DNA of 42,317 nt, counting the filler, from Yuukianura sp. NJ FZ-2021 (Eukaryota), in the NCBI GenBank assembly GCA_046563655.1. It is 2 parts of 2 records of this genome, joined end to end, with 100 filler letters (N's around TTAATTAATTAA, not from the genome) between each part and the next. Parts side by side here need not be neighbours in the genome. Positions count along the whole stretch, not along the records: positions 25,101 to 42,317 come from JAJCTO010000022.1; 1 more part is not named here. One strand, given 5' to 3'. The position numbers were made by a program, and so were the translations under genes. Below the pieces are notes generated by a model that saw only the letters and a list, made by a program, of their open reading frames with translations, was not told the DNA's origin and did no database searches. Positions 4,640-42,317 of the stretch are shown here, in pieces. Each line of letters begins with the position of its first letter. The first letter of the stretch is position 1.

Positions 4640-7005
4640 CTAAAATTACCGTTTTTATCAAAACTTCTAAATCTTAACGTGTTAGCAGTGATTCAGGCAC
4701 AGTTTTCAACGCTGAATCCACTGGTACCTTTAGATTTGGGCTACCATTTGTAGCGCCAAAGTTACAGCAAATTAAAATTTTTTAACTTTTAACAAAATTT
4801 TACGCATAAATTAGTTGTATCTTCTAAAGATACGATCATTAAGACTTTAAAACATCATCATTGACATAGTTTTAGACGTGGAATCCGATGCAATAACCAG
4901 TTTCCTTCCACTATTCATCATTCATGAGTTACAACTAAAAAACGGCAAAACTGAAAAAACTGCAAATTAACTTTTCAAAAGTATCGCCAGCCCCGTATCG
5001 CTCGCCCTCTCTTGAAAAGCTCTTTTCTCGTCGGTAGAGGGAGACACTGGTTGCAAATAGGAGTCTAATAAAACTTAGGGAAATTATCAAAACCTAACCA
5101 ACAAAACTAAAACAAAAATTGAAATAAAAATTAACAACTTGAAATTAAAATTATATACGTATTTCATTGTCGTATTTTCAGACAATGTCAAAAGGATCAG
5201 CGTCTCCCACTCCAGGCCCGTCTAAACGACCATGTCACGTATGTCTTGTCTGTAATGAAAGATTTCAGACCAACGTCCAGCTTCTTATCCACGAGGAAAT
5301 TCAACATCATGACTCTTTAGACAATGAAGAGGAGCAGACACTACCCACCGCACGCGAAATTCTGGACATGTATCGAGAATTGAAGTGTCTGTCTTGTAAT
5401 CAATCGTTTGCCTGTCGAGATGAAATGCAACAGCATTTCTATGACATTCATCCAGACTTTTTCTCAATTAAATCACAAGATGGAGGTCTACGTCCAACAC
5501 CTTTAATACCCATCGAAGTGGAGTTAAGCGTTACATCTCTAAAAGTCGTCAAAGAATACAAAGCAAAATTTGACGAATTCAAGTGTGAAGATGGCGTTGA
5601 CGAGCGAGATTTTTTCAAGTGCGTTTACTCGTCTTCTGTTCATCGGATCAAAGAAGATCGGAAAGAGTGGAAAAACTTAAAGGTTTTTTTCTCCATGGTT
5701 TGCAACTTTACGAAGACTCAAGCCGACGGATCTGTTGAAACAAACCGTGGCTGTTTCACATCATATCGTCATCCATGAAAGCCTTCCAAAGATCTGGACG
5801 ATTATGGGCCACCAAATATCCAACCAAATTGAACACTTTACAAACGAAAGAAGTGGATGGGATTTGGACGGTATAACTGAGTTTAAGTTAGTGACTGCAA
5901 AATACCAATTCACAAAAATTGGAACCTTCATCGAAACACCGTTTCCACTTTCCGAGCATAACAAAACGTTGCTAAAGATAAACAACAGTGAAGTGTCCAT
6001 TTCTAACTCTCACAAGTCTAACTCTCAGTTCTTGCACACAAAAGAATTGCTGGAGTTCCCAACATTAATCGCCACCGCTACAGGGTTGACAAGTTGGTCA
6101 GAACATATGCTCCCCATACATCTAAAGTGAACACACAAGGAATCAAATTTCCAGTAACGATACAGCAGCTCCCTTTATTCGAAAAGCTCAATCCTCGTAT
6201 CTCATTGACAGTTCTCGGTTATGATATGGACGGCCCAGCAGCCCCACCACGTACTCAGCAAAGCAGTCGTAAGAAATCAGGCACTAACAAAAGAGAAGAT
6301 TTGGATTTGTTCAAGTACATGCAATAAAACATTTCCATTCTCTACAATTCAAAAGAGGCCAAACCTATCCATATCGATCTGATGTGTCTCATGCAAGGTA
6401 ACAATTCGCATTTTCTCCTTATTCGAAATCTCGAATCACTCATGTCATCCCCCGATCACAAAGGCTCTAAACACATTTGCCGCAACTGTCTGTCAAACTT
6501 TACCCTTCCAAGAACCCTGAAAGAAATTTGACATCACAAGACAGGAATTTCAGCAGGAAGTCGATAACGGTGGCAACATTGAACTTCTTTTCAAAAAAGC
6601 CGCGTATCCCTATTCACTGATGACATCATGTGAAGACTTTGAGATGACTAGTCTTCCACCAAAAGAAGCATTTTTCAACGACTTAACCGAGTCACCAATT
6701 CAAGACGATGTCTATAATCATGCAAAGAAGGTCTGGGACAGCTTTAACATTGAAAACATGGGACAGTGGCATGACCTCTACGTTCGTCTGGATGTGTCCC
6801 TTCTAGTCGACGTTATGGAGGGAGTGAGGAAGCTGATGATGGACAGTTATGGTCTAGAACTTGGCCATTACTACTCGCTTCCTATGATGGCTATTGATTG
6901 CGCTTTGAAGAAGTCTGGAGTCGTCCTGGATTTGATCACAGACCCAACGATGCATTGCTGGATTGAAGCAGGGATTCGAGGTAAGTAACTTGTGTCACAT
7001 TTAGG

Positions 7006-7023
7006 TAACCTAACCTAACCTAA
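7006..7023. repeat. (TAACC)n tract in PolB intron 6981-7130
   Basis: TAACCTAACCTAACCTAA, immediately preceded by TTAGG. Confidence 0.85.
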
Positions 7024-7276
7024 GAGATCCCTAACCCATATCGGGCGATCTCAGATTGGCCGATATCAGAACGATCTCGGGCGATCTCAGGGACAAAATT
7101 GAAGTGTTTTTTAATTAATTTTCATTTTAGGTGGCTACGTTAGCGTTGGCTCTAGACGGAAAGCAACTGGAAATAATAAATACATGGGAGATGAATACGA
7201 TCCAAATCAACCAATATATTATATAATTTACAGTGATGCGAACAACTTATACGTAAGTGTTTTAAGTTAAACAGGT

Positions 7277-7299
7277 TAACCTAACCTAACCTAACCTAA
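7277..7299. repeat. (TAACC)n tract in PolB intron 7253-7336
   Basis: TAACC x4 plus TAA, preceded by AGGT. Confidence 0.85.
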
Positions 7300-7524
7300 A
7301 TTTATATCAATGTTTTAAGATTGATAATATTTATAGGGCAAATCAATGAGTCTCGCGCTTCCTCTTGGCAACTTTCAATGGTTGACAGAAGAACAAATCA
7401 GAAAAATCTCTGACGATATCAACGCATTTGTAGCTGAAACAGAAAGAAAGAAAAGTGTTGGCTACATGTTGGGGGTAGCATGGTTGGTGTGTGCAAGAAC
7501 GTAAAACGTTCTAGTTTCGAAAGT

Positions 7525-7934
7525 TGAGTCATCGAAATAACTCAAACAAGAATGCAAGGTGAAGGTCCAAAGTATTTGGAAGTTGAGTCATAGAATTAGG
7601 TCGTTAATAAGTCATATAAGAAGGTTAAGTTCAATGATGGCATTTTAATTTGGAAGTCTTATTTGGTACAAAGTCCGATCTGTTTTCAAAGACGAAGGTG
7701 ACTCACACCTTACGTGCACACGTGTGAACAAAGTCCAAAATCGTTTTTGTGTGGTCCACAGTCCGACCCTTTTTCAAGGACGGTGGTGAGTCATGTCCTT
7801 AGGTGCACACGTGGGAACAAAGTCCAGAATCGTATGTTCATCGTCATTTCAATTTGTACTATTAATAGCCGACCCTACAATTAGGTTTTGCGCATGTATA
7901 TATATAGTAACGCTTGAGTTGTGAGAAGTCAGTC
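7525..7934 (+). promoter_or_regulatory. Putative IAP promoter: four AP-1-type sites, two E-boxes, TATA tract, Inr-like TCAGT
   Basis: TGAGTCA at 7525, 7584, 7787; TGACTCA at 7699; CACGTG at 7719, 7808 inside a ~89-bp imperfect duplication; TATATATATA ~7897-7906; TCAGTC at 7929; ATG at 7943. Confidence 0.55.
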
Positions 7935-7942
7935 AAAGGAAT

Positions 7943-8862
7943 ATGGAGGGCCTCATGAGTTATGAGGGGAGATTACAAACGTTTCAGAACGCTCAAGTAA
8001 GATGGCCATTGAATTTTGTGGCCCCGGAAGCATGTTCGTTTGCGGGATTTTACTACCTCGGAGTAGATGACAAGGTGGGTAATTTTCAACTTTTTCTAAA
8101 AAAAAGTAAAAAATTTGGAATAATTTGTTTTCTGTTGAACAGGTTGCGTGTCCATATTGCCGGGGTGTCGTGGGGGAATGGGTGGTTGGTGATGAGCCGT
8201 TGTTGCAGCACCGGAAACATTTCCCACGCTGTCCGTATGTTGTAGTCATGACCGGTCTACTATACGGGGTTGGGTTTGTTACCGTTCCGGATGTCACTGG
8301 GACCCACGGAGCCGAAGCGACCGGAGCAGCGAGGATTGATGTTTTCGAATATGTGACCACAGGAACCGGTATGCCCGGCACGGTAGCTTCTGATGTTTCC
8401 ACCGACCCTGGCCAGAGGGGAATAGATGCTGCCGGTGCTGGGACGAGAGGAACCGACATGGCCGCAGCAGCAGCCGCCCCCGAAACCGACATGGCCGGCG
8501 CGGGAAGAACCGCGCCTGAAACCGACATCCCCAGCGATGGAGGAGCCGATTTGGCCGGGTCGGCAACACGTTACGTGGCAGAAATAACTAGCCTCGAAAC
8601 TGATATTCCCAGTGTGGGTGGAAGTGATGTTGCCGGGACATCTGAACATGTTTCAAGTGCGGCATCCGGCGTTTTTGTTTCTGGTGTTACCAGAGACGAC
8701 TCTGGCAACAGTATTTCTTGTAAGATTTGCTGGGACAAAGAAGCCTGCGACGTATTCTTGCCATGTAAACATTTGGTTGCTTGTCCTACATGTTCATTGT
8801 CATTAAGAAGTTGTGCAGTTTGCCGAGAACCTATACTAATTAGATTAAGGGTGTATACTTAG
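7943..8862 (+). CDS. iap: Inhibitor of apoptosis protein, single BIR plus C-terminal RING, two exons (~283 aa)
   Basis: Exons 7943-8074 and 8143-8862 with a phase-0 GT-AG intron give BIR RLQTF..WP..AGFYYLGVDDKVACPYC..W..GDEPLLQHRKHFPRC and RING CKICWDKEACDVFLPCKHLVACPTC..CAVCR; AATAAA at 8985. Confidence 0.93.
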
Positions 8863-24500: not shown

Positions 24501-25000
24501 AAAACGACTTAAATTTGTGAGAGTAAACATGCAAATGTGAGAATGAACAGAAAGTAAATTTCATTTTTGAAATCCTCATAAAAAGTGCTACAGGAACCCA
24601 CTTTCACTTGCTGTGTCGTCCATAATCTTGTTATCTTTATTTGTGAAAATTCATGTTTCAAAACAAAGAATTCAAAAGAAATGCATTCCGGAACGATGCT
24701 GGGTAAAAGTCAACTATATTTTTGGAATCCTCATAAAAAGTGCTACAGGAACCCACGTTCATTTGCTGTGTCGTCCCTCATCTCGTGACCCTTTTCTTAT
24801 GAAAATTTGTTTCAAAACAAGTCAATCGAAAAACCTCCACGAGGAGCGATGACGGGCGAAAATGAGTTACTTTTTTGAAATCCTCCTGAAAAGTACTACA
24901 GGTACCCACGTTCAGTTGCTGTGTCGTCCCTCATCTCGTGACCCTTTATTTATGAAAATTTGTGTCGAAACAAATCATTCAAAGAAACCTCCACGCGGAG
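9559..25000. repeat. Composite satellite of ~154-bp subunit variants and a ~236-bp subunit; higher-order units of ~545, 698, 851 and 1005 bp
   Basis: Every subunit ends in GAAATCCTC(A/C)T(A/G)AAAAGT(G/A)CTACAGG(A/T)ACC(C/A)A; the 236-bp subunit occurs 22 times, separated by 2-5 of the 154-bp subunits; array runs into the gap. Confidence 0.97.
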
Positions 25001-25100
25001 NNNNNNNNNNNNNNNNNNNNNNNNNNNNNNNNNNNNNNNNNNNNTTAATTAATTAANNNNNNNNNNNNNNNNNNNNNNNNNNNNNNNNNNNNNNNNNNNN
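25001..25100. other. Assembly gap with artificial six-frame-stop linker
   Basis: 44 N + TTAATTAATTAA (25045-25056) + 44 N = exactly 100 bp. Confidence 0.95.
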
Positions 25101-28100
25101 AATAGTCGGTTTTTTCCCTGAAGTTCCATCGACGTGTGAGTTATCATGATTCATGGTGTCAAAGTGAGAACGCATGGTTTGCATGTGAAGTGAAGGCATG
25201 CTTGACACTTCACCGGCACTTCTAGTTTAAGCTCAAGGATGGAGGCTGACAACATGTTTTTCAACGTGTGATTTAGTCAGTTATGCACTACGACGAAGTG
25301 GACCGTTATTTGATGAATACCAAGAATTTTGGTATGAGCGGTAACAAGGCATAAATTCCATTTTTCAGAACGTTTAACACTTTGTTGTATAGTTTCAACC
25401 CTAAGTTAAACCTAAATCGTAGTTAGACTTATGCAGTTGTGGTATGGTGATGCTGTGCTAAATAACAATTTCAGACTATTGTTGGGCAGAAGTTTTCAGA
25501 CATGATGTATTTAATGTGCTAGTCGGTAGGAAATATAAAAAAGTATTTTCCAGAAATTTTATCCAAAAATGGCCAAAAATGCCGAATGTTCAATTTTGAT
25601 TTAGAAAATGTAATAGTCGGTTTTTCCTGAAGTTCCATCGACGTGTGAGTTATCATGATTCATGGTGTCAAAGTGAGAACTCATGGTTTGCATGTGAAGT
25701 GAAGGCATGCTTGACACTTCACCGGCACTTCTAGTTTAAGCTCAAGGATGGAGTCTGACAACATGTTTTTCAACGTGTGATTTAGTCAGTTATGCACTAC
25801 GACGAAGTGGACCATTATTTGATGAATACCAAGAATTTTGGTATGAGCGGTAACAAGGCATAAATTCCATTTTTCAGAACGTTTAACACCTTGTTGTATA
25901 GTGTCAACCCTAAGTTAAACCTAAATCGTAGTTAGACTTATGCACTTGTTGTATGGTGGAGCTGTGCTAAAATACAATTTTGGACTATTGTTATGCAGAA
26001 GTTTTCACACATGATCTATTTAATGTGCAAGTCGGTAGGAAATATAAAAAAGTATTTTCCAAAAATTGTATCCAGAAACGGCCAAAAATGCTGAATGTTC
26101 AATTTTGATTTAGAAAATGTAATAGTCGGTTTTTCCCTGAAGTTCCATCGACGTGTGAGTTATCATGGTTCATGGTGTCAAAGTGAGAACGCATGGTTTG
26201 CATGTGAAGTGAAGGCATGCTTGACACTTCACCGGCACTTCTAGTTTAAGCTCAAGGATGGAGTCTGACAACATGTTTTTCAACGTGTGATTTAGTCAGT
26301 TATGCACTACGACGAAGTGGACCGTTATTTGATGAATACCAAGAATTTTGGTATGAGCGGTAACAAGGCATAAATTCCATTTTTCAGAACGTTTAACACC
26401 TTGTTGTATAGTTTCAACCCTAAGTTAAACCTAAATCGTAGTTAGAATTATGCACTTGTGGTATGGTGATGCTGTGCTAAATAACAATTTCAGACTATTG
26501 TTGGGCAGAAGTTTTCAGACATTTAATGTGCTAGTCGGTAGGAAATATAAAAAAGTATTTTCCAAAAATTTTATCCAAAAATGGCCAAAAATGCTGAATG
26601 TTCAATTTTGATTTAGAAAATGTAATAGTCGGTTTTTCCCTGAAGTTCCATCGACGTGTGAGTTATCATGATTCATGGTGTCAAAGTGAGAACTCATGGT
26701 TTGCATGTGAAGTGAAGGCATGCTTGACACTTCACCGGCACTTCTAGTTTAAGCTCAAGGATGGAGTCTGACAACATGTTTTTCAACGTGTGATTTAGTC
26801 AGTTATGCACTACGACGAAGTGACCGTTATTTGATGAATACCAAGAATTTTGGTATGAGCGGTAACAAGGCATAAATTCCATTTTTCAGAACGTTTAACA
26901 CCTTGTTGTAAAGTTTCAACCCTAAGTTAAACCTAAATCGTAGTTAGACTTATGCACTTGTGGTATGGTGATGCTGTGCTAAAATACAATTTCGGACTAT
27001 TGTTGGGCAGAAGTTTTCAGACATGATCTATTTAATGTGCAAGTCGGTAGGAAATATAAAAAAGTATTTTCCAAAATTTCTATTCAGAAATGGCCAAAAA
27101 TGCTGAATGTTCAATTTTGATTTAGAAAATGTAATAGTCGGTTTTTCCCTGAAGTTCCATCGACGTGTGAGTTATCATGATTCATGGTGTCAAAGTGAGA
27201 ACGCATGGTTTGCATGTGAAGTGAAGGCATGCTTGACACTTCACCGGCACTTCTAGTTTAAGCTCAAGGATGGAGGCTGACAACATGTTTTTCAACGTGT
27301 GATTTAGTCAGTTATGCACTACGACGAAGTGGACCGTTATTTGATGAATACCAAGAATTTTGGTATGAGCGGTAACAAGGCATAAATTCCATTTTTCAGA
27401 ACGTTTAACACTTTGTTGTATAGTTTCAACCCTAAGTTAAACCTAAATCGTAGTTAGACTTATGCAGTTGTGGTATGGTGATGCTGTGCTAAATAACAAT
27501 TTCAGACTATTGTTGGGCAGAAGTTTTCAGACATGATGTATTTAATGTGCTAGTCGGTAGGAAATATAAAAAAGTATTTTCCAGAAATTTTATCCAAAAA
27601 TGGCCAAAAATGCCGAATGTTCAATTTTGATTTAGAAAATGTAATAGTCGGTTTTTCCCTGAAGTTCCATCGACGTGTGAGTTATCATGATTCATGGTGT
27701 CAAAGTGAGAACTCATGGTTTGCATGTGAAGTGAAGGCATGCTTGACACTTCACCGGCACTTCTAGTTTAAGCTCAAGGATGGAGTCTGACAACATGTTT
27801 TTCAACGTGTGATTTAGTCAGTTATGCACTACGACGAAGTGGACCATTATTTGATGAATACCAAGAATTTTGGTATGAGCGGTAACAAGGCATAAATTCC
27901 ATTTTTCAGAACGTTTAACACCTTGTTGTATAGTGTCAACCCTAAGTTAAACCTAAATCGTAGTTAGACTTATGCACTTGTTGTATGGTGGAGCTGTGCT
28001 AAAATACAATTTTGGACTATTGTTATGCAGAAGTTTTCACACATGATCTATTTAATGTGCAAGTCGGTAGGAAATATAAAAAAGTATTTTCCAAAAATTG

Positions 28101-31100
28101 TATCCAGAAACGGCCAAAAATGCTGAATGTTCAATTTTGATTTAGAAAATGTAATAGTCGGTTTTTCCCTGAAGTTCCATCGACGTGTGAGTTATCATGG
28201 TTCATGGTGTCAAAGTGAGAACGCATGGTTTGCATGTGAAGTGAAGGCATGCTTGACACTTCACCGGCACTTCTAGTTTAAGCTCAAGGATGGAGTCTGA
28301 CAACATGTTTTTCAACGTGTGATTTAGTCAGTTATGCACTACGACGAAGTGGACCGTTATTTGATGAATACCAAGAATTTTGGTATGAGCGGTAACAAGG
28401 CATAAATTCCATTTTTCAGAACGTTTAACACCTTGTTGTATAGTTTCAACCCTAAGTTAAACCTAAATCGTAGTTAGACTTATGCACTTGTGGTATGGTG
28501 ATGCTGTGCTAAATAACAATTTCAGACTATTGTTGGGCAGAAGTTTTCAGACATGATGTATTTAATGTGCTAGTCGGTAGGAAATATAAAAAAGTATTTT
28601 CCAGAAATTGTATCCAGAAACGGCCAAAAATGCTGAATGTTCAATTTTGATTTAGAAAATGTAATAGTCGGTTTTTCCCTGAAGTTCCATCGACGTGTGA
28701 GTTATCATGATTCATGGTGTCAAAGTGAGAACGCATGGTTTGCATGTGAAGTGAAGGCATGCTTGACACTTCACCGGCACTTCTAGTTTAAGCTCAAGGA
28801 TGGAGTCTGACAACATGTTTTTCAACGTGTGATTTAGTCAGTTATGCACTACGACGAAGTGGACCATTATTTGATGAATACCAAGAATTTTGGTATGAGC
28901 GGTAACAAGGCATAAATTCCATTTTTCAGAACGTTTAACACCTTGTTGTAAAGTTTCAACCCTAAGTTAAACCTAAATCGTAGTTAGACTTATGCACTTG
29001 TGGTATGGTGATGCTGTGCTAAAATACAATTTCGGACTATTGTTGGGCAGAAGTTTCCAGACATGATCTATTTAATGTGCAAGTCGGTAGGAAATATAAA
29101 AGTATTTTCCAAAATTTCTATTCAGAAATGGCCAAAAATGCTGAATGTTCAATTTTGATTTAGAAAATGTAATAGTCGGTTTTTCCCTGAAGTTCCATCG
29201 ACGTGTGAGTTATCATGATTCATGGTGTCAAAGTGAGAACGCATGGTTTGCATCTGAAGTGAAGGCATGCTTGACACTTCACCGGCACTTCTAGTTTAAG
29301 CTCAAAGATGGAGGCTGACATGTTTTTCAACGTGTGATTTAGTCAGTTATGCACTACGAGGAAGTGGACCGTTATTTGATGAATACCAAGAATTTTGGTA
29401 TGAGCGGTAACAAGGCATAAATTCCATTTTTCAAAACGTTTAACACCTTGTTGTAAAGTTTCAACCCTAAGTTAAACCTAAATCGTAGTTAGACTTATGC
29501 ACTTGTGGTATGGTGATGCTGTGCTAAAATACAATTTCGGACTATTGTTGGGCAGAAGTTTTCAGACATGATCTATTTAATGTGCAAGTCGGTAGGAAAT
29601 ATAAAAAAGTATTTTCCAAAATTTCTATTCAGAAATGGCCAAAAATGCTGAATGTTCAATTTTGATTTAGAAAATGTAATAGTCGGTTTTTCCCTGAAGT
29701 TCCATCGACGTGTGAGTTATCATGATTCATGGTGTCAAAGTGAGAACGCATGGTTTGCATCTGAAGTGAAGGCATGCTTGACACTTCACCGGCACTTCTA
29801 GTTTAAGCTCAAAGATGGAGGCTGACAACATGTTTTTCAACGTGTGATTTAGTCAGTTATGCACTACGACGAAGTGGACCGTTATTTGATGAATACCAAG
29901 AATTTTGGTATGAGCGGTAACAAGGCATAAATTCCATTTTTCAGAACGTTTAACACTTTGTTGTATAGTTTCAACCCTAAGTTAAACCTAAATCGTAGTT
30001 AGACTTATGCAGTTGTGGTATGGTGATGCTGTGCTAAATAACAATTTCAGACTATTGTTGGGCAGAAGTTTTCAGACATGATGTATTTAATGTGCTAGTC
30101 GGTAGGAAATATAAAAAAGTATTTTCCAGAAATTTTATCCAAAAATGGCCAAAAATGCCGAATGTTCAATTTTGATTTAGAAAATGTAATAGTCGGTTTT
30201 TCCCTGAAGTTCCATCGACGTGTGAGTTATCATGATTCATGGTGTCAAAGTGAGAACTCATGGTTTGCATGTGAAGTGAAGGCATGCTTGACACTTCACC
30301 GGCACTTCTAGTTTAAGCTCAAGGATGGAGTCTGACAACATGTTTTTCAACGTGTGATTTAGTCAGTTATGCACTACGACGAAGTGGACCATTATTTGAT
30401 GAATACCAAGAATTTTGGTATGAGCGGTAACAAGGCATAAATTCCATTTTTCAGAACGTTTAACACCTTGTTGTATAGTGTCAACCCTAAGTTAAACCTA
30501 AATCGTAGTTAGACTTATGCACTTGTTGTATGGTGGAGCTGTGCTAAAATACAATTTTGGACTATTGTTATGCAGAAGTTTTCACACATGATCTATTTAA
30601 TGTGCAAGTCGGTAGGAAATATAAAAGTATTTTCCAAAAATTGTATCCAGAAACGGCCAAAAATGCTGAATGTTCAATTTTGATTTAGAAAATGTAATAG
30701 TCGGTTTTTCCCTGAAGTTCCATCGACGTGTGAGTTATCATGGTTCATGGTGTCAAAGTGAGAACGCATGGTTTGCATGTGAAGTGAAGGCATGCTTGAC
30801 ACTTCACCGGCACTTCTAGGTTAAGCTCAAGGATGGAGTCTGACAACATGTTTTTCAACGTGTGATTTAGTCAGTTATGCACTACGACGAAGTGGACCGT
30901 TATTTGATGAATACCAAGAATTTTGGTATGAGCGGTAACAAGGCATAAATTCCATTTTTCAGAACGTTTAACACCTTGTTGTATAGTTTCAACCCTAAGT
31001 TAAACCTAAATCGTAGTTAGACTTATGCACTTGTGGTATGGTGATGCTGTGCTAAATAACAATTTCAGACTATTGTTGGGCAGAAGTTTTCAGACATGAT

Positions 31101-33258
31101 GTATTTAATGTGCTAGTCGGTAGGAAATATAAAAAAGTATTTTCCAGAAATTGTATCCAGAAACGGCCAAAAATGCTGAATGTTCAATTTTGATTTAGAA
31201 AATGTAATAGTCGGTTTTTCCCTGAAGTTCCATCGACGTGTGAGTTATCATGATTCATGGTGTCAAAGTGAGAACGCATGGTTTGCATGTGAAGTGAAGG
31301 CATGCTTGACACTTCACCGGCACTTCTAGTTTAAGCTCAAGGATGGAGTCTGACAACATGTTTTTCAACGTGTGATTTAGTCAGTTATGCACTACGACGA
31401 AGTGGACCATTATTTGATGAATACCAAGAATTTTGGTATGAGCGGTAACAAGGCATAAATTCCATTTTTCAGAACGTTTAACACCTTGTTGTAAAGTTTC
31501 AACCCTAAGTTAAACCTAAATCGTAGTTAGACTTATGCACTTGTGGTATGGTGATGCTGTGCTAAAATACAATTTCGGACTATTGTTGGGCAGAAGTTTC
31601 CAGACATGATCTATTTAATGTGCAAGTCGGTAGGAAATATAAAAAAGTATTTTCCAAAATTTCTATTCAGAAATGGCCAAAAATGCTGAATGTTCAATTT
31701 TGATTTAGAAAATGTAATAGTCGGTTTTTCCCTGAAGTTCCATCGACGTGTGAGTTATCATGATTCATGGTGTCAAAGTGAGAACGCATGGTTTGCATCT
31801 GAAGTGAAGGCATGCTTGACACTTCACCGGCACTTCTAGTTTAAGCTCAAAGATGGAGGCTGACATGTTTTTCAACGTGTGATTTAGTCAGTTATGCACT
31901 ACGAGGAAGTGGACCGTTATTTGATGAATACCAAGAATTTTGGTATGAGCGGTAACAAGGCATAAATTCCATTTTTCAAAACGTTTAACACCTTGTTGTA
32001 AAGTTTCAACCCTAAGTTAAACCTAAATCGTAGTTAGACTTATGCACTTGTGGTATGGTGATGCTGTGCTAAAATACAATTTCGGACTATTGTTGGGCAG
32101 AAGTTTTCAGACATGATCTATTTAATGTGCAAGTCGGTAGGAAATATAAAAAAGTATTTTCCAAAATTTCTATTCAGAAATGGCCAAAAATGCTGAATGT
32201 TCAATTTTGATTTAGAAAATGTTATAGTCGGTTTTTCCCTGAAGTTCCATCGACGTGTGAGTTATCATGATTCATGGTGTCAAAGTGAGAACGCATGGTT
32301 TGCATCTGAAGTGAAGGCATGCTTGACACTTCACCGGCACTTCTAGTTTAAGCTCAAAGATGGAGGCTGACATGTTTTTCAACGTGTGATTTAGTCAGTT
32401 GTGCACTACGACGAAGTGGACCGTTATTTGATGAATACCAAGAATTTTGGTATGAGCGGTAACAAGGCATAAATTCCATTTTTCAGAACGTTTAACACCT
32501 TGTTGTATAGTGTCAACCCTAAGTTAAACCTAAATCGTAGTTAGACTTATGCACTTGTTGTATGGTGGAGTTGTGCTAAATAACAATTTCAGACTATTGT
32601 TGGGCAGAAGTTTTCAGACATGATGTATTTAATGTGCTAGTCGGTAGGAAATATAAAAAAGTATTTTCCAAAAATTTTATCCAAAAATGGCCAAAAATGC
32701 TGAATGTTCAATTTTGATTTAGAAAATGTAATAGTCGGTTTTTCCCTGAAGTTCCATCGACGTGTGAGTTATCATGATTCATGGTGTCAAAGTGAGAACG
32801 CATCGTTTGCATCTGAAGTGAAGGCATGCTTGACACTTCACCGGCACTTCTAGTTTAAGCTCAAAGATGGAGGCTGACATGTTTTTCAACGTGTGATGTA
32901 GTCAGTTATGCACTACGAGGAAGTGGACCGTTATTTGATGAATACCAAGAATTTTGGTATGAGCGGTAACAAGGCATAAATTCCATTTTTCAGAACGTTT
33001 AACACCTTGTTGTATACTGTCAACCCTAAGTTAAACCTAAATCGTAGTTAGACTTATGCACTTGTTGTATGGTGGAGTTGTGCTAAATAACAATTTCAGA
33101 CTATTGTTGGGCAGAAGTTTTCAGACATGATGTATTTAATGTGCTAGTCGGTAGGAAATATAAAAAAGTATTTTCCAAAATTTCTATTCAGAAATGACCA
33201 AAAATGCTGAATGTTCAACTTTGATTTAGAAAATGTAATAGTCGGTTTTTCCCTGAAG
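25101..33258. repeat. Satellite, ~510-bp unit, 16 copies plus a ~22-bp partial
   Basis: AATAGTCGGTTTTTCCCTGAAGTTCCATCG recurs every ~503-511 bp from 25101; last partial copy starts ~33237; no ORFs >=60 aa. Confidence 0.97.
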
Positions 33259-33589
33259 AGTAGTAATCACGTAGGGACTACTACCAAAAAACGTAAACAA
33301 AACATGACCTCGTTTTTCGAAATGAACTCTGTCAGTACATGTGCACTGACGGAGTTGACGAGACAATGATTATGATGTCATCAATTTTCCCACACGAGGC
33401 TGCCTCTGTGAGATCCACCATCCTCCCTCTCACACAAATTCTTTTGTACTTAAGAGTTGGGAGGAAACCAGGAGGGGAGATTGACTGCATTTTCATTACT
33501 TTGCTCCAAACTTACCATTAGGCAAATGCATGCAAGTGGGTGAGTTTAGTTGATTACCAACTTAGAAGCAGTGTACATATACAACGAAA

Positions 33590-36500
33590 ATGTCGGGTTA
33601 CAATAAGTCGATTTTGTATACGTGTGAAAGATGTGCGTTAGGAAACTTAAGTGCACCAGAGTTCTTGAATCATGTCCAAAGGACTCATCCTGACATTGAA
33701 ATCCCAGGTAATTTTAGTACAATAGCATGTTGTAACGATATTGTTAAAACAAAATCTTTGTACATTAGGCGAACTGTTACAAGACGATCAGATTCAAGAT
33801 TTGTCGCACATTAGTTGCACTTTTCAGGATGTTGAAATTCAAGGTATGTTTAGAACAATAGCAGACTAATCGATGAATATTAACCAATGTTGATAGAAAG
33901 TGGTTGTACAATTTACCTTTTGTTACAAGGTGTCCGAGTTGAAGATAATCGCGCGAGGGAAACATTTTGCGAAAGACTGTTCGGCTGCGAAACTTGTAAC
34001 ATACGAGGACTTAGAGAGCGAGACTTTATAAGTCATATGGAGCAAGTTCATCCAAGCATTCAATTGCCATGTAAGAAAAGTTGTAATTATATGAAATTTT
34101 TGTTTGAGATGACATTCATCTTGTTTATTTTACGATCAGCTGGTTCAAGAAGTTCAAGGTCGCCAGGTATTCCGAGGCCGCAGCAGGTTGTTGAACACCT
34201 TCGGAACGAAATAGAAGGTAAGCTGCAAATTATTATATTTTGTATTAAATTTTCGTGAAACGTATTTGTTTTGTATGAAATGACAGATCCTGAGGTTTTG
34301 GAATTACAAAACTACCAGAGGCGGTTTTGCGCCCAATGCGGAATAAACTTTGAATTTCCGGGACATTTAGATGAACACCAATTCAACGTTCATCCCGAAA
34401 TTTATGTTCGAAATGTTACTCCAAATCAGCAGGGTGGTTGTGCTGCATTCAACCGCGTACCTTTTGATGAAGTGGTAGCTTTTGGAGGTACAACTCGCGA
34501 GTATACGGCTAGATTTGAGGAAAATGTGTTTGTGGACGTGCGTGGCGTGTTTTCACATTGCTCAGCGACCTTGAGGGAGTTGATGACAAGGATTCACGAT
34601 GAAATTGGCTCGTATTTAGTGACAAGTGTTGCACTTGTAGAAATGACACGAGAACTGCGTTATAATCCGGATGAACATCAGGTGGAAGACTTCCCATTTC
34701 GTTCTTTTGCACATGTCTGTCTGCAACCACGGATGATAGAAAACGCAAATTCGGTTGATGTCAAACAAAATTGGAGACACAATAGCAGTATTTCTGCGGA
34801 AGGGATCTGGGTGGAAAGTTAGCCGGTTCAAATGGATTACCTTCAAGTTTTCTGTTTACCAAATCCAACGAGGACGCGGTTGGATCCCCACGCCAGCAAG
34901 TATAAGACGCAAGTGTTGCATTGTGAATATTAGAAATGTTGACGAATTCTGCTTCAAGTATGCCATTTTGTCCGAATTATATCCGTTATATAAGAATGGA
35001 TCAACTCCGTGGTACCATGTCGTTAACCCCAGAAGCTACGACAATGTTCCAAACACTGTGGACTGGGACTGCGTCAACTTTCCGATGGACCTAGACCAAA
35101 TGGACAAGTTTCACCACTTTAATCCTAAATTGTCAGTGAATGTGTATGGGTATGAACACAGAGATGAGTTGGATCCGAATTACGCGAAACAGAAGCTGAA
35201 AGTGTTTCCACTTCATGTATGTCAAGAAAAGAGGGAAAAGCACATTGATTTATTATTACTCATAGACGGAAGTGATTCGCATTTCGTTTTGCTTAAACAA
35301 ACGGACGAAAATCCATCTTTTGGGTTATCTCGCCTTCTGGGAAGCAAGTGCGTGCTGAAAAGTTTATCTGCAATTTTTGTCTCCACTACTGGCGATCAAA
35401 GGAGACACTGGACAGACATAAAATTTTCTGTGCCGCAGTAGAACCACAGGGTGTGTGCTTTCCACCAGAATTCAAGTACACATTTCAAGCACATTCGCCA
35501 CACACTACCTGTGTCTTTTGTCATTGTTTGTGACTTTGAGTGCATTTTACGACAAGAATGTGGAACAATGTGAATTGGAAATGTGCTGAATGAACACGTT
35601 GACTTTGGCTACAGTTTTGTGATTCTAGGACCAACCGGGAGGATGTGCGAGGAACCATTGACCTTTTGTGGTCGAAACGCTGCTCAGCATTTACTCGAAG
35701 ATTTGGTGAATATTACTGAACCATATTTTATAAAATTGAAACAAGATGTTGGACGTGACCCATCATACACTGAAATCGATTTTTATAATTCGAGAACCGC
35801 AGCCACAAACTGCATCCACTGTGGTGTTCAGTTTCAAAATGTGAGAGACACAGTGATTGACCATTGTCACCTCACGGGACGTATACGAGGAGTGAGTTGT
35901 AACAATTGCAACTTACAACTTCAAGTCACCAAAAAAATCCCCATCGTTTTTCACAATTTTCGAAACTATGACTCTCACTTTATAGTTCAAGCGTTGAAAA
36001 GCAACTTGTTCAAACATGTTTTACCCCTACCTACGTCAGAAGAAAAGTTTACATCAATGGAGTGTACAACTCATGCCGGAAATGCTCTCAAGTTTATAGA
36101 CTCTTATCAGTTTATCAGTTCCAGCTTGGCAGACTTGGTGGAAATGATGGCGAAAAAGGATGTGAATAAGTTCCAAGTGACCAAAGGTGCATTTCGTCAT
36201 CATCCAGGAGCAATGTCTTTTCTGCTTCAAAAGGGGGTCTACCCATACGAGTACATGGACAGTTTTGAAAAGATGGATGAGACTGGACTGCCCGACAAGG
36301 AAGCATTCTACAGTAAACTGAGACGAGAAGGAATTTCCGACGAAGATTACGAAAGAGCACTGAAGGTGTGGGAAGAGTTCGGATGTAGTACCTTGAGAGA
36401 TTATCACAACCTTTATGTGAAGTTGGACGTTTGCTTGTTGGCAGATTGTTTCCAGGACTTTGAGAGATACGATGATTACAAATTTCCGCTTAGACCCCGC

Positions 36501-38101
36501 TCATTACGTGACCCTTCCAGGAATTGCATACGATGCTGCAATGTTGGATTGGAAGAGTCGATTATGACTACTTGAAAGTGGATGACATGTACATGTGGTG
36601 TGAGAGGGGAATTCGTGGTGGAAATTGTGCTGTGGGGCTTCGATATGCAAAAGCAAACAATCCTTACATGGGAGCTCAATACGACCCGTCGAAACCACTA
36701 AGCTACTTGTGCTTGTTGGACGCCAATCTTCTCTACAGCACATGTTTGAGATGCTTTGTTCCTTGGAAGAATTTCCGCTGGGATCCGAGCTTTGAAGCAC
36801 GAACCGCAGATTTGGAGAGTGCAGTTGCAAGAATTTTGAGGATGGGAGATGAGGAGAGAGAAGAGCTCGTTTTGGAAGTTGACTTGGACTATCCAGATGA
36901 ACTGCATGATCAGCACAATGACTATCCACTGGCAGTAGAACGAGGAATGATTGAATATGAAAACTTGCCCCCCTACACAAAAAACGTGATGGAAAATTTG
37001 GGTGTTAGACCGACCTCAGTCAACAAATCGAAACTGATGGGCACCTTTTACCCAAAAAAAATTACATTATCCACTACAGACTGCTCAAGTTGTTTTTGCA
37101 GTTGGGACTCAAGTTGACAAAAATCCACCGAGGTCTTCGTTTCACACAAGCACCACTTATGTGAGCACCCCTACATTGAAATGTGCATCGAGAGAAGGAG
37201 AAGTGCCACGAATCCGGTTGATGTGAAATTTTGGAAAGCGATGGGAAACATTGTGTTTGGGAAACTGTTGCAAAATGTTCGAAAGCACAAGAGAATCAAC
37301 ATTGCGCTGACTCGTCAAAAAGTTTTCGAGTATGGAAAAAAACCAACTGTGAAACGTTTCAAAATTTTACACGAAGAGTGTGTTTTGTTCATGATGAAAA
37401 AGCTTTCAGTATGTTTAAATAAGCACATAAGTGCTGGACTTACAGTTTTGGATGACAGCAAACGAATCATGTACGATTTCTACTACAATGTCATGCCGAA
37501 AAAGTATGGCGAAAACATGAGACTGGTTATGACGGACACGGACAGTCTCCTGTTGCACATCAAGACTCCAGATCTCTACCAAGACTTTTACCAAATGACC
37601 CAAGATCCAGACTGCCGACTCGACACTTCCAACTATGATCCCAAGCATCCAACCCTCGGACACTTGTCTTCCCAGCAACATCAAGGAAAGTGTGGCTACT
37701 TCAAGGACGAATTTGCCAATTCAATTGTAACTGAGGTTGTTGCACTCAAGCCAAAACTGTACTGCGTCCGCTCTCTGGACCAGAATAACATCGTCTCGGA
37801 CCGAAAAAAGCCAAGGGCACGGTGAGAGCTGCGGTGAGGAATCAACTTCCGTTTTGATGACTATCTTCGTGTGCTGGATGAGTCATCTTCACTCAGTGTT
37901 AGGATGACCACAATTCGAAGTTTGGACCACCGAGTTTACACAACGACCGTATGCAAGCAGAGCCTTGCTGCATTGGAGGACAAGTCTGGCTACTACATCT
38001 CCCCAATCGAGTCTCTCCGATTTGGTCACTACCAAATCCCAATGTACCAACAAGAAGAAGAAGAAGAACAACAACAAGACGAACAAATGCAACAAGTTTA
38101 A
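33590..38101 (+). pseudogene. polB: Protein-primed family B DNA polymerase with spliced three-finger C2H2 leader and endonuclease VII-like insert; several frameshifts
   Basis: Exons 33590-33707, 33769-33843, 33930-34070, 34140-34217, 34287 onward. Motifs: GSGW, NIRNVDEFCF, ExoI VIVCDFE (~35520), CIHC..DHCHLTGRIRGVSCNNCN, ExoII HNFRNYD, KGVYPY, ExoIII YVKLDV, GIRGG, A LDANLLY, B KAMGNIVFGK, C TDTDS, GYFKDE, LKPKLY, terminal RFGHY. Confidence 0.95.
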
Positions 38102-38195
38102 GTTATTATTTAAGCCAATTAAATAAAAATTTAAATTTTAGTTTGAATTTAACCGTTTGACCAAACACAAGTGTTTTTTTTAAGTTGTAGTAGAG

Positions 38196-38854
38196 ATGAG
38201 TTTTCATTTCGGGCTGAGTCATCCGTTTGTGATGGTTTGTGCAGGAGCCACGCAATCTGGAAAGAGTACATTAATTCATCAATTAATTTTGAGAAAGGAT
38301 GAAGTGATTGAGCCTAAAATTGAAGCGAGTAATCTATTGCTACGGCGAAGATTTGCCTTCGTTTGCAAGTTCTGTGCATGAAGCTTTCAAGGACAAGGAG
38401 GACGTTTGTGTTGAATTTCAAAAGGGTATGGAGGTGGAGGTGGCCGAGGGAAACCGAGTTCCCACTCTCGTTATTCTCGACGACTTTATGGAAGAGATTG
38501 CAATGTCCAAGGACGTTTGCACAATGGTGACACGAGGGAGTCATCACAGATCAATGTCTCTAATCATTACAATGCAAAACTTTTTCTACAAAAACTGTAG
38601 AAACTTGACGTTAAACAGCAAATATTTGGCGTTATTTCGAAATCCCGAAAGACTCTACAATTATTCAGTTTCTGGGAAGACAAATGAACAATGGAAAAAG
38701 TCATCCCGTCCTTGAAGCTGCATACGAGGACGCAACAAAAAACAAGCCAAACAGTTACTTGTTTATGGACTTGAGTCAACAGCAGGATGATGAACACCGT
38801 TTCCGTTCAAATCTTTTTCCCGACCCATCATGCATCGTCTATTTGAAAAAATAG
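38196..38854 (+). pseudogene. A32/FtsK-like DNA packaging ATPase, frameshifted
   Basis: Walker A GATQSGKST, Walker B LVILDD, RGSHH..IITMQN, YLALFRNP and C-terminal YLFMDLSQ..RFRSNLF ending TAG 38852-38854; frameshifts near 38322 and 38650. Confidence 0.9.
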
Positions 38855-38913
38855 ATTCAAGGTAACTTACCCCTCAAGTTCGTTTGAGTTCAAGTAGTCC
38901 TTGAACTAGACAG

Positions 38914-39405
38914 TCAAACAAATCTGCAGGAATACAGATTCCAACACCCGGCTTCCAACTGGTTTCGAATGTGAAGATAAGAGTTGTCTGTAGTATTCCC
39001 AAGATGATCAGCAAAAAAGAGGGTCCATCCATTCTCGAGCATGACTTGAGGCGGCGGAAGAGGATTTGGGAATTGTTTACGAATCTCCACAATCATGGGA
39101 ACCGATGAGACTTTGCGCGTGTGTGCTGGATAATGCTTCTTTTTCTTTTGACGAGTAGAATGTAGGGTGTATGGAGGTGAACTTTCGTGACCTTCCATGT
39201 CTTCGGATGGTACAAAGCTTGGTCCAGGAGTAGCCATTTCTTGAGTGGGTGGGTGGAGCTTCACAGATTGTCCTCGTGACGATTTGTTCAAGTTGCAGTT
39301 GCAAGAAAAGGATTTACACACTGTGATTGTAGTTGTAGAATTTCGTTTACACAAAAACTCGGAAAATGATCTCCAGATACTAAAAATGCAACCACAGTTC
39401 ATCAC
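38914..39405 (-). CDS. Hypothetical protein within the Polinton
   Basis: 163-codon ORF immediately downstream of the integrase stop on the same strand; no recognisable motif; start uncertain (MATPGPS is an alternative). Confidence 0.35.
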   Translation of the reverse strand: MMNCGCIFSIWRSFSEFLCKRNSTTTITVCKSFSCNCNLNKSSRGQSVKLHPPTQEMATPGPSFVPSEDMEGHESSPPYTLHSTRQKKKKHYPAHTRKVSSVPMIVEIRKQFPNPLPPPQVMLENGWTLFFADHLGNTTDNSYLHIRNQLEAGCWNLYSCRFV

Positions 39406-39420
39406 CCGCGGACTTCAAGG

Positions 39421-40881
39421 TTAGGAATGAAGAATTTTCTGGAGTTCCGGATCATAAAATACACCAAAGATGAACTCTCCTTTTAAATCCTGAAGCTGAT
39501 AGCTGGTTGGAGTAGTATAAAAAACTTTGGAAACCTTGAACTGCTCTCGATTCCAAGACCTCGAGTAGCCCTTTTCAAAGATTTTTTTGATTTTACTAAT
39601 CAGAACAGTGTCCCCAACGGAGAATTTCCTCTTTTTACGACGCTTTACGACTCTGTCTTTGTAGAGATTTAGAAAAACGTCAGTTTTCGTTTCTTCGTTG
39701 ACTTGATTTGGTGTGCACATTTGATGGAAGAGTGGTATGAATTGTTGTAATTCTCTACGATCGCAGGTAGAAAATTTCTCCGTTCCCTTGTAAGTCATGT
39801 AGCGAGCAATTCTATTCATAAGAGTCTGGTTGAATCTCTCCACAATTACCGCCTTCAACTCGGATCCTGTACTGAACATATGGATTCCATGCTGTTTGAG
39901 TAACTTTTCCACAGTTTTGTTGATGAATTCTTTGCCCCGATCTACCTGCAAGTACTTGCAAGGCCCTCGCTTTTCTATAATCTTTGCCAGAGCATTTCGC
40001 ACAGTTGGGGCATTTTTATTCTTGAGTGGAATTGCATCCTGCAACTTTACTAAACCCATTGATGCAAGTCAACAAGAACTTGTATCCGTTGTTTGAGTCG
40101 CAATACTTGCTTACGTCAATCAGATCTGCTACCATTTGTTACACCCAGATTTAGAGTACCCATATTTAGAGTACTTAGTACACTTAGTCACTTAGTCGCT
40201 AAGGGACCCCAGCCCTTGTATTTAGTCACTAGGCAGGAAGTGTAATAGCAAGGCCAGGCTAATTAAGACAAAAACCACAAGGCTAAATTGATTAGTGAAT
40301 TAGCCCAATTAAGGTAACCACAGCCGTAGCCGGTAATGCGGTTAGAGCTCCGAACTTCCTATGTTTACCGCAACCTTAATTGAGTAATTAGCAGTAATTA
40401 AGCACCTGGTATAAATACCCGGTAGTTACTGCCCTAAGTTAAGTCAGTACAGAAGTCGAAGAAGTAAGCAAAACTCCGAACAAAGAAGTACGACACTTAA
40501 TAAGAACAAAAAGACTTCATTTCACCTCCTCGCAACAATGGACTGACTGGCATGGAACCTCGGCCGCCCGGAAGGGGTCTTTAGGGCCCTTGACCCCACG
40601 GGGCAAACATCGGTCTCCCCCGTGGGCCCTTCCTGAAATGGCGAACGCCTATTTCCGGCGTTACACATTTGTTGCTTAAGTCCAGGAATGAATACTCTTC
40701 GCCTAGGATATCTTTTCCGAGCTCGTTTGTGCAGAGTATATGCTGGTATGGAGTAGAGTGACTGCTCGACATCTTTTGAATGATTTTTCAAACTTTTTTT
40801 AACTTGATATGCACCCGAAAAACTATGCTGGACATTTGGATTTACGTAATCCTCTTTGATTTGTTTTTCTAGCTCTGACAT
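39421..40881 (-). pseudogene. Polinton retroviral-like (rve) DDE integrase interrupted by a solo LTR
   Basis: 5' part YVNPNVQHSFSG..PAYTLHKRARKRYPRRR..LKQQM joins VADLIDVSKY..NNGYKFLLTCINGFSK once the insert is removed; then LQVDRGKEF, VERFNQTL, FSVGDTV, FEKGY..W, ELQK. Extra frameshift near 40040. Confidence 0.93.
40137..40665 (+). mobile_element. Solo LTR (529 bp), probably Ty3/gypsy type
   Basis: TGTTACACC...GGCGTTACA termini (TG..CA, 7/9 inverted match); CATT duplicated at 40133-40136 and 40666-40669; TATAAAT at 40410 and TCAGT at 40444 suggest + orientation. Confidence 0.9.
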
Positions 40882-40982
40882 TTGGAGGACTAAATTAAAA
40901 TGCGACAAGTGTCATGGTCTTTATTGTTAGCAGCTTCTTGAGTGAAAAGGTTCATTGACGCCCAACTCCTTGGCTGGTCAAC

Positions 40983-41352
40983 ATGTCCAAGTGTGTAGCG
41001 CAAAACAGAGAGTTTTTGAGCTATTTGTCCAAAGCAACGTCACCTAAACAGCGGCGAGAATTGATTAAAAACGCAAGCAAAGAGGAAATTCAAGGCATTT
41101 GTGAGTGTATACTTAACGTGTACAAAGGGAACGTGGGCATCACCGCCAACACTGTCAAACGCCTGAAAACCATACAAAAAAACCATTCTCGCAATAATCA
41201 AGGGTCGGCGGAGGTCAAGTCTCAAGTTTAAGAAAAAACGACTCTTGTCTCAAAAAGGGGGAGCGGTACTACCTCTTTTGTTGGGAGCTGTACTACCCTC
41301 TTTAATTAGTACTGCCGTAGGATTTTTCAAAAAGAAAACTCAGCCGGAATAA
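40983..41352 (+). pseudogene. Small basic Polinton-type protein with QKGG and hydrophobic tail (putative virion core/membrane-active precursor); one frameshift
   Basis: IQGICECILNVYKGNV; removing one A at 41166-41169 continues KPYKKTILAII..KKKRLLSQKGGAVLPLLLGAVLPSLISTAVGFFKKK to TAA 41350-41352. Confidence 0.7.
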
Positions 41353-41357
41353 AGCGA

Positions 41358-42119
41358 ATGAAGTTGGTGAACGAAGCAGATTTTCAAAAACTTCAACAGC
41401 AAACCAAATTAGTTGGAAATGACGTTTCTATCCCTGCCGTCGATTCCGCAGACCCGAAACTGAGCGTGTTGTCAAATTCAAACATACCAGATGACATAAA
41501 AGCAATTTTGTATCAAGACCTAGCTCGTCGTCTCCATCAAAAACGTCTTATTTTAGAATCCAAACCAATTTTGGTGAAAAATGTTGCGGGTGACCGTGAC
41601 CGTCAACATGAGGGATTTCAAGAAGAAGACGAAAATGAATCAAATCTTTTTTACGGAACTCAACTTGGAGATAGTATAATTTCCAATCCCAGCATCAGAG
41701 TGGAAAATCTTTTAGATGTTACTGAACCATACATTTTGGAGCAGCTAAAAGGAAGTAAAAATGCAAGAAAACTTTTGCATTTGATGCGCTACAATGACAT
41801 TGTATGGAATGAAAAGTTTGAAGTTTTGATTCAAAAGCAACGTCTACCAGGCTCTGACATTGTAAACATACTACAATATTTCATAAACCTCAAGGATCGA
41901 AAGCATATTAGAGCTCCCGAAGGATTCATACAAGTTCGAGACCAATTGCAGCGGTACATTTCTCCAAAAATTGTGGATGGATCTGCTCCAAACTCTGGAA
42001 TTTCACGCCTAATCACTTCCCCAGCAATATTTTTTGAGCAAAGACAACAACAACAGAACCTGGCGGGATCAAATTACAACACTCCAAGTGCCAGCCAGAA
42101 TGATAAGGGGAACCGATGA
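41358..42119 (+). CDS. Polinton-associated protein of unknown function
   Basis: 253-aa ORF starting 5 nt after the upstream stop; IVWNEKFEVLI..PGSDIVNIL resembles an uncharacterised ORF I recall from Polintons; coding-like sequence may continue to the window end in another frame. Confidence 0.65.
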   Translation: MKLVNEADFQKLQQQTKLVGNDVSIPAVDSADPKLSVLSNSNIPDDIKAILYQDLARRLHQKRLILESKPILVKNVAGDRDRQHEGFQEEDENESNLFYGTQLGDSIISNPSIRVENLLDVTEPYILEQLKGSKNARKLLHLMRYNDIVWNEKFEVLIQKQRLPGSDIVNILQYFINLKDRKHIRAPEGFIQVRDQLQRYISPKIVDGSAPNSGISRLITSPAIFFEQRQQQQNLAGSNYNTPSASQNDKGNR

Positions 42120-42317
42120 GGAAGAGGAGGAAGAGGAAGAGGTAGATGACGTTTTTGAACAAAACCCCCAACCACCACCACCACCATTTCAAATTCATCG
42201 TCCCTCACCTACTAGAGCTAAAGCTACACCTATTGCAAAGAGACTTGTAAGGAGGGCTGCTAATCCAACTGGAAAAGGATGTGTTCAAAAAAGGAGGGAC
42301 CAAGGAGTCAAAAAGGA

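Follow-up and report, generated by a model that had tools for sequence, protein, structure and literature searches.

A probable spliced, modular zinc-finger leader on the PolB gene of a dead adintovirus/Polinton-type element in Yuukianura sp.

Polintons (Mavericks) and adintoviruses are usually annotated open reading frame (ORF) by ORF, and in related protein-primed systems the N-terminal part of the polymerase, PolB, is thought to act as the terminal protein. We analyzed a 42,317-nucleotide stretch of DNA from Yuukianura sp. NJ FZ-2021 (assembly GCA_046563655.1), hereafter the window, in which the PolB gene of such an element appears to begin with a short leader of zinc-finger exons parted by introns. 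In the available text of Barreat & Katzourakis 2021 (PMC8097293), vertebrate Mavericks, which are the same kind of element as that of the window, are likewise mutationally degraded in most copies, and the genes of intact ones are reported to contain no introns, in agreement with Kapitonov & Jurka 2006; unlike these elements, the lineage of the window appears to need introns to start PolB. The adintovirus PolB, as presented in the accessible portions of PMC8502044, resembles that of the window in its homologous core and in a nearby rve integrase, which in the window lies on the opposite strand. However, those portions describe neither an N-terminal finger nor splicing (the string 'splic' occurs 0 times), whereas in the window a finger precedes the N-terminal domain and the start of the gene is split by introns. 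Splicing does have a precedent in adenovirus E2B: in the excerpted text of PMC11304566, the mRNAs for pTP and Ad-pol have spliced 5' exons in common, which are joined to a terminal coding exon, so that a polymerase reached via upstream spliced exons is normal in the adenovirus-like world. That text attributes no protein domain to these 5' exons, whereas each exon reported here encodes a protein module, and introns measure 61-86 nt in the window against kilobases in E2B. Introns of the 'introner' type are also mentioned inside polinton-like elements of dinoflagellates (PMC12166617, partial text). In the main-text portions consulted of the literature on adintovirus, Polinton and Maverick PolB, no PolB leader that is spliced or bears fingers was found for animal elements.

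The reading that we favor, and hold to be probable, is that of a lineage-specific, spliced and modular zinc-finger leader on an adintovirus/Polinton PolB, carried here by a dead copy. PolB would start, in the lineage of the window, at this short spliced leader and not at the polymerase ORF. An initial annotation of the window had drawn exons, introns and fingers between 33590 and 34438, and all of its coordinates turned out to be exact. Four GT-AG introns, all of phase 1, join five exons into an open frame, as had been claimed, and this spliced frame contains the three C2H2 fingers that had been named (CERC..HVQRTH-P, CETC..HMEQVH-P and CAQC..HQFNVH-P), each followed by proline, with linker exons between them. 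All three fingers read C-x2-C-x12-H-x4-H, which agrees with the C-x2-4-C-x12-H-x3-5-H spacing, and the internal exons, of 75, 141 and 78 nt, are each a multiple of three.

All features of the leader lie on the + strand. The putative start codon, ATG 33590, is the first methionine codon downstream of a stop at 33563-33565. Exon 1 (33590-33707, 118 nt) holds this codon and finger 1 (33623-33688), and ends with H-P-D-I-E-I-P and a split codon. Intron 1 (33708-33768, 61 nt, GTAATT..TTAG, GC content 0.25) and intron 2 (33844-33929, 86 nt, GTATGT..CAAG, GC content 0.30) are homologous to each other; between them lies exon 2 (33769-33843, 75 nt), an acidic linker that repeats the second half of finger 1 in degenerate form. 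Exon 3 (33930-34070, 141 nt) encodes finger 2 (33986-34051) and ends with H-P-S-I-Q-L-P and a split codon. It is followed by intron 3 (34071-34139, 69 nt, GTAAGA..TCAG, GC content 0.25), which would bring in no in-frame stop if retained, and by exon 4 (34140-34217, 78 nt), a linker rich in serine, arginine and proline. Intron 4 (34218-34286, 69 nt, GTAAGC..ACAG, GC content 0.25) contains a TGA at 34256-34258, in the frame of exon 4, and an ATG at 34280, in the frame of exon 5 and three codons ahead of it. Exon 5 (34287-38050) is open and stop-free from finger 3 (34328-34393) into the polymerase, and continues as the decayed PolB body, colinear with the PolB proteins P0003, P0002 and P0001.

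Judged from the sequence, the intron pattern of the leader is more than chance. We scored every GT against the donor consensus MAG|GTRAGT, which has seven variable positions. Between 33590 and 34438, the only sites with at least five of seven matches are the four proposed donors, CAG|GTAATT, AAG|GTATGT, CAT|GTAAGA and AAG|GTAAGC (6, 6, 5 and 6 matches, respectively); seven sites on the whole + strand of the window have at least six matches, and three of the seven are leader donors. GC content is 0.25-0.30 in the introns versus 0.39-0.51 in the exons. In a shuffling experiment, the fingers were kept fixed and the two inter-finger segments were mononucleotide-shuffled, a valid chain being one of zero to two acceptable introns that leaves the frame open. 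Such chains arose in 42/5000 and 57/5000 shuffles of the individual segments, and in 0/5000 for both segments together. The acceptor part of this experiment is post hoc, since the rule set initially (a pyrimidine at -3 and at least 60% pyrimidines) rejected the real sites and was relaxed afterwards; the donor result is independent of this rule. The pyrimidine fraction from -18 to -5 is 0.50, 0.79, 0.64 and 0.50 for the four introns, and one acceptor is AAG.

The initial annotation had also suggested that finger number may change by exon duplication, and the leader bears the footprint of this process: part of an exon has been copied together with its intron, and exons 1 and 3, on the strength of their alignment, are paralogous (31 residues aligned up to the exon end, 11 identical and 21 similar; BLASTP E 1e-9). 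The copied unit is an old tandem duplication of about 136 nt (33678-33929), which pairs the end of exon 1 plus intron 1 (33678-33768) with the end of exon 2 plus intron 2 (33814-33929). The alignment covers the last 30 nt of exons 1 and 2, crosses the donor and runs along the intron; its score is 50, compared to 21.1 +/- 4.0 in dinucleotide shuffles, and 0/2000 shuffles reached 50. The units are offset by 136 nt, the combined length of exon 2 (75 nt) and intron 1 (61 nt). From this offset and the alignment it follows that exon 2 arose as a copy of the final 75 nt of exon 1, which encode the second half of finger 1; it has since diverged and lost the zinc ligands. As 136 cannot be divided by three, such a copy would shift the frame unless its intron were removed, and as exon 2 and intron 2 copy the end of exon 1 and intron 1, modules were duplicated together with their intron. 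The leader thereby shows, neatly and on a small scale, how a module can be gained when an exon is duplicated along with its intron. A recent duplication of two exons, which would pair exon 1 through intron 2 with exon 3 through intron 4, was also considered and has no DNA-level support; when the end of exon 3 plus intron 3 was compared with the end of exon 4 plus intron 4, the alignment was no better than shuffles (509/2000 reached the observed score).

Where the modules came from is suggested by an alignment of five of them: the three fingers of the window, finger 1 of an intact metagenome relative (L001, see below) and the PolB-proximal finger of a second PolB remnant located in the left part of the window. 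The two cysteines, the two histidines and the proline are invariant, and a tyrosine stands five to seven residues before the first cysteine in 4/5 modules. With these common residues, the upstream fingers look like copies of the PolB-proximal finger. In this lineage, tandem copying has added finger modules upstream, parted from one another by very short phase-1 GT-AG introns.

A leader of the same design is found ahead of an intact PolB. We scanned metagenome contigs and kept 80 loci, of which 59 were tabulated; the other 21 were left out because their match begins far inside PolB or at a contig edge. L001 is the contig of P0003 (9680 nt). Its PolB ORF is intact, with 1295 codons, and 41-42% identical to the PolB of the window. 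A 74% relative obtained in the same scan, L002, is cut off upstream. In L001, the leader comprises four exons, three phase-1 introns and two fingers: exon 1 starts at ATG 2137, encodes a finger with the spacing of those in the window, followed by proline, and ends with CAG|GTGAGT; two more short exons, acidic or of mixed charge, precede the junction to the PolB ORF. These leader exons measure 124, 66 and 159 nt and the introns 95, 87 and 82 nt, with GC contents of 0.38-0.53 and 0.26-0.30, respectively. The model was preferred to 283 alternative chains from a loose enumeration because its donors are the strongest (7, 5 and 4 matches of 7) and because it keeps the finger and a conserved acidic peptide. 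As the exons of L001 are spread over different genomic frames, they are unreadable without splicing. Furthermore, neither L001 nor L002 has a methionine ahead of the finger in the PolB frame, so that a PolB including the conserved finger would need either splicing or a non-AUG start.

Intron positions point in the same direction. In exons 1 and 3 of the window and in exon 1 of L001 (H-P-E-H-V-R-S), the intron follows the finger after H-P, five residues and a split codon, that is, at the same residue and in the same phase in the window and in L001. L002 keeps the acidic exon, with an open frame and many synonymous-type changes, and its last intron is located at the L001 position; this comparison covers two related loci. 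Of the 59 tabulated loci, L001 alone shows an upstream finger located in an ORF of its own and compatible with a spliced leader; in L017 and L039 a C/H motif occurs in a short ORF that is unrelated, and in L058, L063 and L065 the fingers are part of the PolB ORF. About 190 nt upstream of its leader ATG, L001 also contains direct repeats of ~165-169 nt (1629-1946), 84-86% alike.

We then asked how widespread the finger is, using a HMMER profile of the finger and the following domain built from the window, L001 and L002. A search of 1.84 billion representatives returned 59 proteins, 21 of which match the whole profile in one stretch, while the other 38 are multi-finger proteins matched through the finger alone. 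A strict PolB-proximal finger is present in 19 of the 21, and is followed by proline in 10 of these 19. The clade finger reads C-x2-C-x12-H-x4-H, often then P-E-F-Y. Five of the 21 have one to three extra upstream fingers in the same ORF, and three do not begin with methionine. On this profile evidence, the PolB-proximal finger is a conserved feature of the clade. Finger counts across relatives, which had been put forward as a check, range from one to four, with two in the left PolB. N-terminal C2H2 fingers are also seen in 13 of the best 120 of the 549 relatives found with the PolB of the window. As they are common in the clade (19/21), the fingers are less remarkable in themselves than had been implied, and it is the introns that are unusual. 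An intron-split leader is seen only in the window, in L001, in L002 and possibly in P0122. The ORF of this last protein reads like a translated pyrimidine tract followed by D-P, and exon 5 of the window also begins with D-P, a hint that P0122 may share the last intron site of the window.

Structure models are consistent with genuine finger folds. The AlphaFold model of window exon 3 is beta-beta-alpha, with strands at 17-19 and 24-27 and a helix at 29-39 (core pLDDT 91-93). For L001, we modelled the first 400 residues of PolB from a 21-sequence alignment (mean pLDDT 85.9); the PolB-proximal finger is again beta-beta-alpha (pLDDT 86-92), with the helix over the two histidines. L001 residues 215-351 may be OTU-like, with matches to many OTU entries at Z 5-6.5 (VIA-align), below the level that the tool calls safe; an OTU-like domain agrees with the adintovirus PolB N-terminus published in the accessible portions of PMC8502044. 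Residues 66-204 (L001:2947-3363), between the finger and the putative OTU-like domain, are modelled with confidence as an alpha/beta domain. The structures closest to it, at borderline scores, are 'little finger' domains that bind DNA in Y-family polymerases (Z 8.8, 8.2 and 7.6), and no description of it was found in the portions of the adintovirus/Maverick literature searched. A Foldseek search of the L001 N-terminal model against the PDB returned no match at E <= 0.001.

These observations suggest the following scenario. The host spliceosome would join the leader exons, thereby adding a start codon and extra fingers to PolB. By simple arithmetic on exon lengths, cassette exons could be left out with the frame intact. 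The fingers, placed beside the N-terminal part of PolB, might tether the polymerase to DNA, the likely target being either the element termini at initiation or host chromatin. A more ambitious version holds that, in some invertebrate adintovirus/Polinton lineages, leader exons are symmetric phase-1 cassettes, each with a copy of the N-terminal finger of the polymerase, spliced or alternatively skipped to give isoforms of PolB or the terminal protein with one to three fingers and differing DNA or chromatin targeting, the modules having arisen by tandem duplication of exon parts with introns. We consider this version rather doubtful; if true, it would mean that a virus-like transposon uses intron-mediated domain shuffling on its own replicase.

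The gene downstream of the leader is that of a Polinton-like polymerase. In addition to an N-terminal domain and a putative OTU-like region, its body contains an internal C2HC finger, an insert resembling Endonuclease VII, and the exonuclease and polymerase domains. In the ORF pieces downstream of the leader, Pfam recognizes Endonuclease_7 and, below the cut-off of 25.8, DNA_pol_B_2 (E 5.8e-5, 22.6 bits). Among the 549 relatives obtained by protein search is 'PolB [Parasteatoda house spider adintovirus]' (E 6.6e-53); three others are unnamed metagenome proteins with 46-50% identity to the PolB of the window. The latter is colinear with the full-length P0003 and P0001 at 41-50% identity, and its colinearity with P0003 (1281 aa) leaves no room for introns in the body. 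A word-indexed protein search restricted to longer proteins gave no match for the exon-5 piece; as P0002 and P0003 do match this piece by tblastn, we ascribe the null result to a failure of sensitivity and relied on the HMMER profile search instead. A scan of IMG/VR gave only three distant loci, 30-32% identical. The internal C-x2-C-x12-H-x3-5-C finger ahead of the Endonuclease VII-like insert, at 35369 (+) in a frame that is shifted there, is kept in 96 of the best 120 of the 549 relatives.

Downstream of PolB, an rve-type integrase fragment lies at 39421-40065 on the - strand (Pfam rve E 3.2e-7, 31.0 bits vs a cut-off of 32.6), and the region 38187-41585 is syntenic with the L001 genes downstream of PolB, the genes of the window being frame-shifted there too. 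Together, the PolB relatives, the rve fragment and the synteny with L001 identify an element of Polinton/Maverick-adintovirus type; the right piece of the window (25101-42317, from JAJCTO010000022.1) holds an old, dead integrated element of this type. No Pfam family was found in the ORFs up to the window end at 42317, where no search was aimed at capsid, maturation protease or packaging ATPase. Inside the integrase region, about 540 nt of the window (40138-40685) have no counterpart in L001 (8660 to 8674), and may be an insertion or intron-like. The PolB gene has about seven frame changes (34745-34755, ~35339, ~35488-35574, 36455-36463, 36546-36548, ~37054 and ~37158) and two stops, at 37823 and 37835, where the sequence aligns well. 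A part of the frame changes may be due to assembly errors. From these lesions the copy is dead, a pseudogene, and with PolB broken at so many sites nothing in this copy is functional.

Several observations speak against a spliced leader or weaken the case for it. In a pseudogene such as this, a leader of 564 nt that has stayed intact is itself unsurprising: with ~9 lesions in 3.75 kb, we estimate that ~1/4 of leaders would be undamaged by chance. Without splicing, the three fingers are in one genomic frame, with fingers 2 and 3 parted by a single stop. Neither tblastx nor BLASTP matches the upstream exons of the window to those of L001; the two leaders are too diverged for BLAST, and the homology of their upstream exons is judged from pattern and position. 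The nucleotide identity of L001 and L002 is 61% in exon 3 and 57% in intron 3, a weak contrast. The role of the predicted fingers in DNA binding is pure inference: they are isolated rather than linked in an array, and they stay below Pfam gathering thresholds. Finger 1 matches a ZNF462-type C2H2 family weakly (E 2.2e-4, 21.4 bits vs a cut-off of 27), finger 2 scores 12.8 bits vs 29, and the exon-5 piece gives no family; a search of 33000-35000 against Rfam also gave no match. Finally, ATG 34280 could start a PolB with one finger, as in most relatives.

This last point is the basis of the best surviving alternative, which we nevertheless find unlikely: two genes, with exons 1-4, joined by splicing of introns 1-3, encoding a small two-finger early protein that ends at TGA 34256-34258, and PolB being expressed separately from ATG 34280. 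This ATG is in frame with exon 5, and 18/21 members of the clade begin with a methionine from a few to ~45 residues ahead of the PolB-proximal finger. Small genes of a comparable kind are known: in the portions of the sources available, 'Oncoid' genes with Cys motifs are typically upstream of adintovirus PolB (PMC8502044) and 'Ziftr' zinc-finger genes occur in some adintoviruses (bioRxiv 10.1101/2024.03.25.586562), so that Cys/His-motif coding sequence lies just upstream of PolB as it does in the window. However, Ziftr and Oncoid are described there as separate genes, whereas in the window the last finger is in the PolB ORF and the upstream ones join it in frame. Two genes would also leave unexplained why donor 34218 has 6/7 consensus matches and why acceptor 34286 joins exactly in frame. 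In addition, the three closest relatives with available N-termini, L001, L002 and P0122, have no methionine before the finger, which implies that their PolB needs an upstream exon; in P0122, the pyrimidine-like tract followed by D-P may correspond to the start of window exon 5. The upstream fingers are, moreover, paralogous to the finger module of PolB. One may even speculate that some of the zinc-finger 'genes' upstream of adintovirus PolB are unrecognised leader exons.

That no splicing takes place seems to us highly improbable. The leader would once have been a continuous three-finger ORF, as in the left PolB and P0148, and the 'introns' would be decayed or inserted stretches with an accidental likeness to introns. 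The common genomic frame of the fingers fits this idea, as do the lengths of the intervening segments (222 nt for intron 1, exon 2 and intron 2 together; 69, 78 and 69 nt for intron 3, exon 4 and intron 4), the presence of only one stop between fingers 2 and 3 and none in frame in intron 3, the decay of the remainder of the gene, and the 2-4 fingers that several relatives carry in uninterrupted ORFs. Yet the four strong donors stand where they are needed and nowhere else in the stretch, the introns are AT-rich, and both chains together never arose in 5000 shuffles. Exon 2 has an open frame only after splicing, the 136-nt duplication would break the frame of an unspliced leader, and the exons of the intact L001, of the same design, are in different frames.

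Equally improbable is a chimera in which exons 1-4 stem from a host zinc-finger gene beside the insertion and join PolB in frame by coincidence: the introns are indeed confined to the leader, with none in the PolB body, and spider models P0004, P0005, P0007 and P0013 fuse Krueppel-type arrays to PolB (some of these predictions are possibly chimeric), but L001 has the same leader design ahead of PolB amid other surrounding sequence, the upstream fingers resemble the PolB-proximal finger, of which they seem to be paralogs, in spacing, in the tyrosine before the first cysteine and in the H-P tail, and only 331 nt separate the leader ATG from an upstream satellite. The spider proteins, annotated as 'C2H2-type domain-containing protein', are like the window in having fingers N-terminal to an Endonuclease VII and PolB body (39-42% identity in PolB). 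Their fingers, however, form close arrays of the H-x3-H type, 28 residues apart, whereas those of the window are isolated, of the H-x4-H-P type, and separated by long linkers.

If the spliced leader is real and the polymerase of this lineage cannot start without splicing, annotation by ORF would truncate PolB, and might then take leader exons for separate small zinc-finger genes and err on which copies are intact. Splicing would also imply nuclear expression dependent on the host spliceosome, as in adenoviruses. The conserved finger at the start of PolB in this clade, of which the literature searched makes no mention, suggests a built-in DNA-tethering device on a protein thought to prime replication. 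The present copy is a fossil, and its value is that of a pointer to the lineage.

The surroundings of the leader are repetitive. A satellite of ~510 bp occupies 25101-33258 in 16 copies, 62-100% alike, and ends 331 nt before the leader ATG; its unit has no match elsewhere within the window. The satellite and the start codon are separated by 331 nt of unique sequence (33259-33589, +), presumably a 5' flank, a promoter or a truncated element end. As regards terminal repeats, 33380-33600 has no second copy within the window, and the far end of the element is beyond the window.

The window consists of two separate pieces, 1-25000 and 25101-42317, on either side of an artificial spacer at 25001-25100 (44 N + TTAATTAATTAA + 44 N), so that features of the left and right pieces are not shown to be neighbours. 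This bears on the left PolB, with which the initial annotation had compared the leader: it does have two fingers without introns, at 5242 and 5386 in one ORF, but it belongs to another piece across the spacer and is not a neighbour of the right PolB. The left PolB (5149-7477, +) starts at ~5185 and is strongly decayed; it is 25-40% identical to the right PolB, P0002, P0003, P0008 and P0010, and ~260 residues are apparently missing between its N-terminal part and the polymerase core. Its leader reaches 24.5 bits with Pfam C2H2, vs a cut-off of 27.

Directly after this remnant lies an IAP-like ORF pair (7925-8862, +), with a BIR domain (E 3.2e-8) and a C3HC4 RING (E 2.3e-11), which could be a host gene or cargo of the element; the word-indexed protein search found no relative of the ORF at 8110-8859. 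Downstream of it, a single C-x2-C-x12-H-x4-H motif is found at 9133 (+). The rest of the left piece, from 9559 to its edge at 25000, is a second, complex tandem array, unrelated to the satellite and made of ~153-bp subunits in units of ~698 bp or more.

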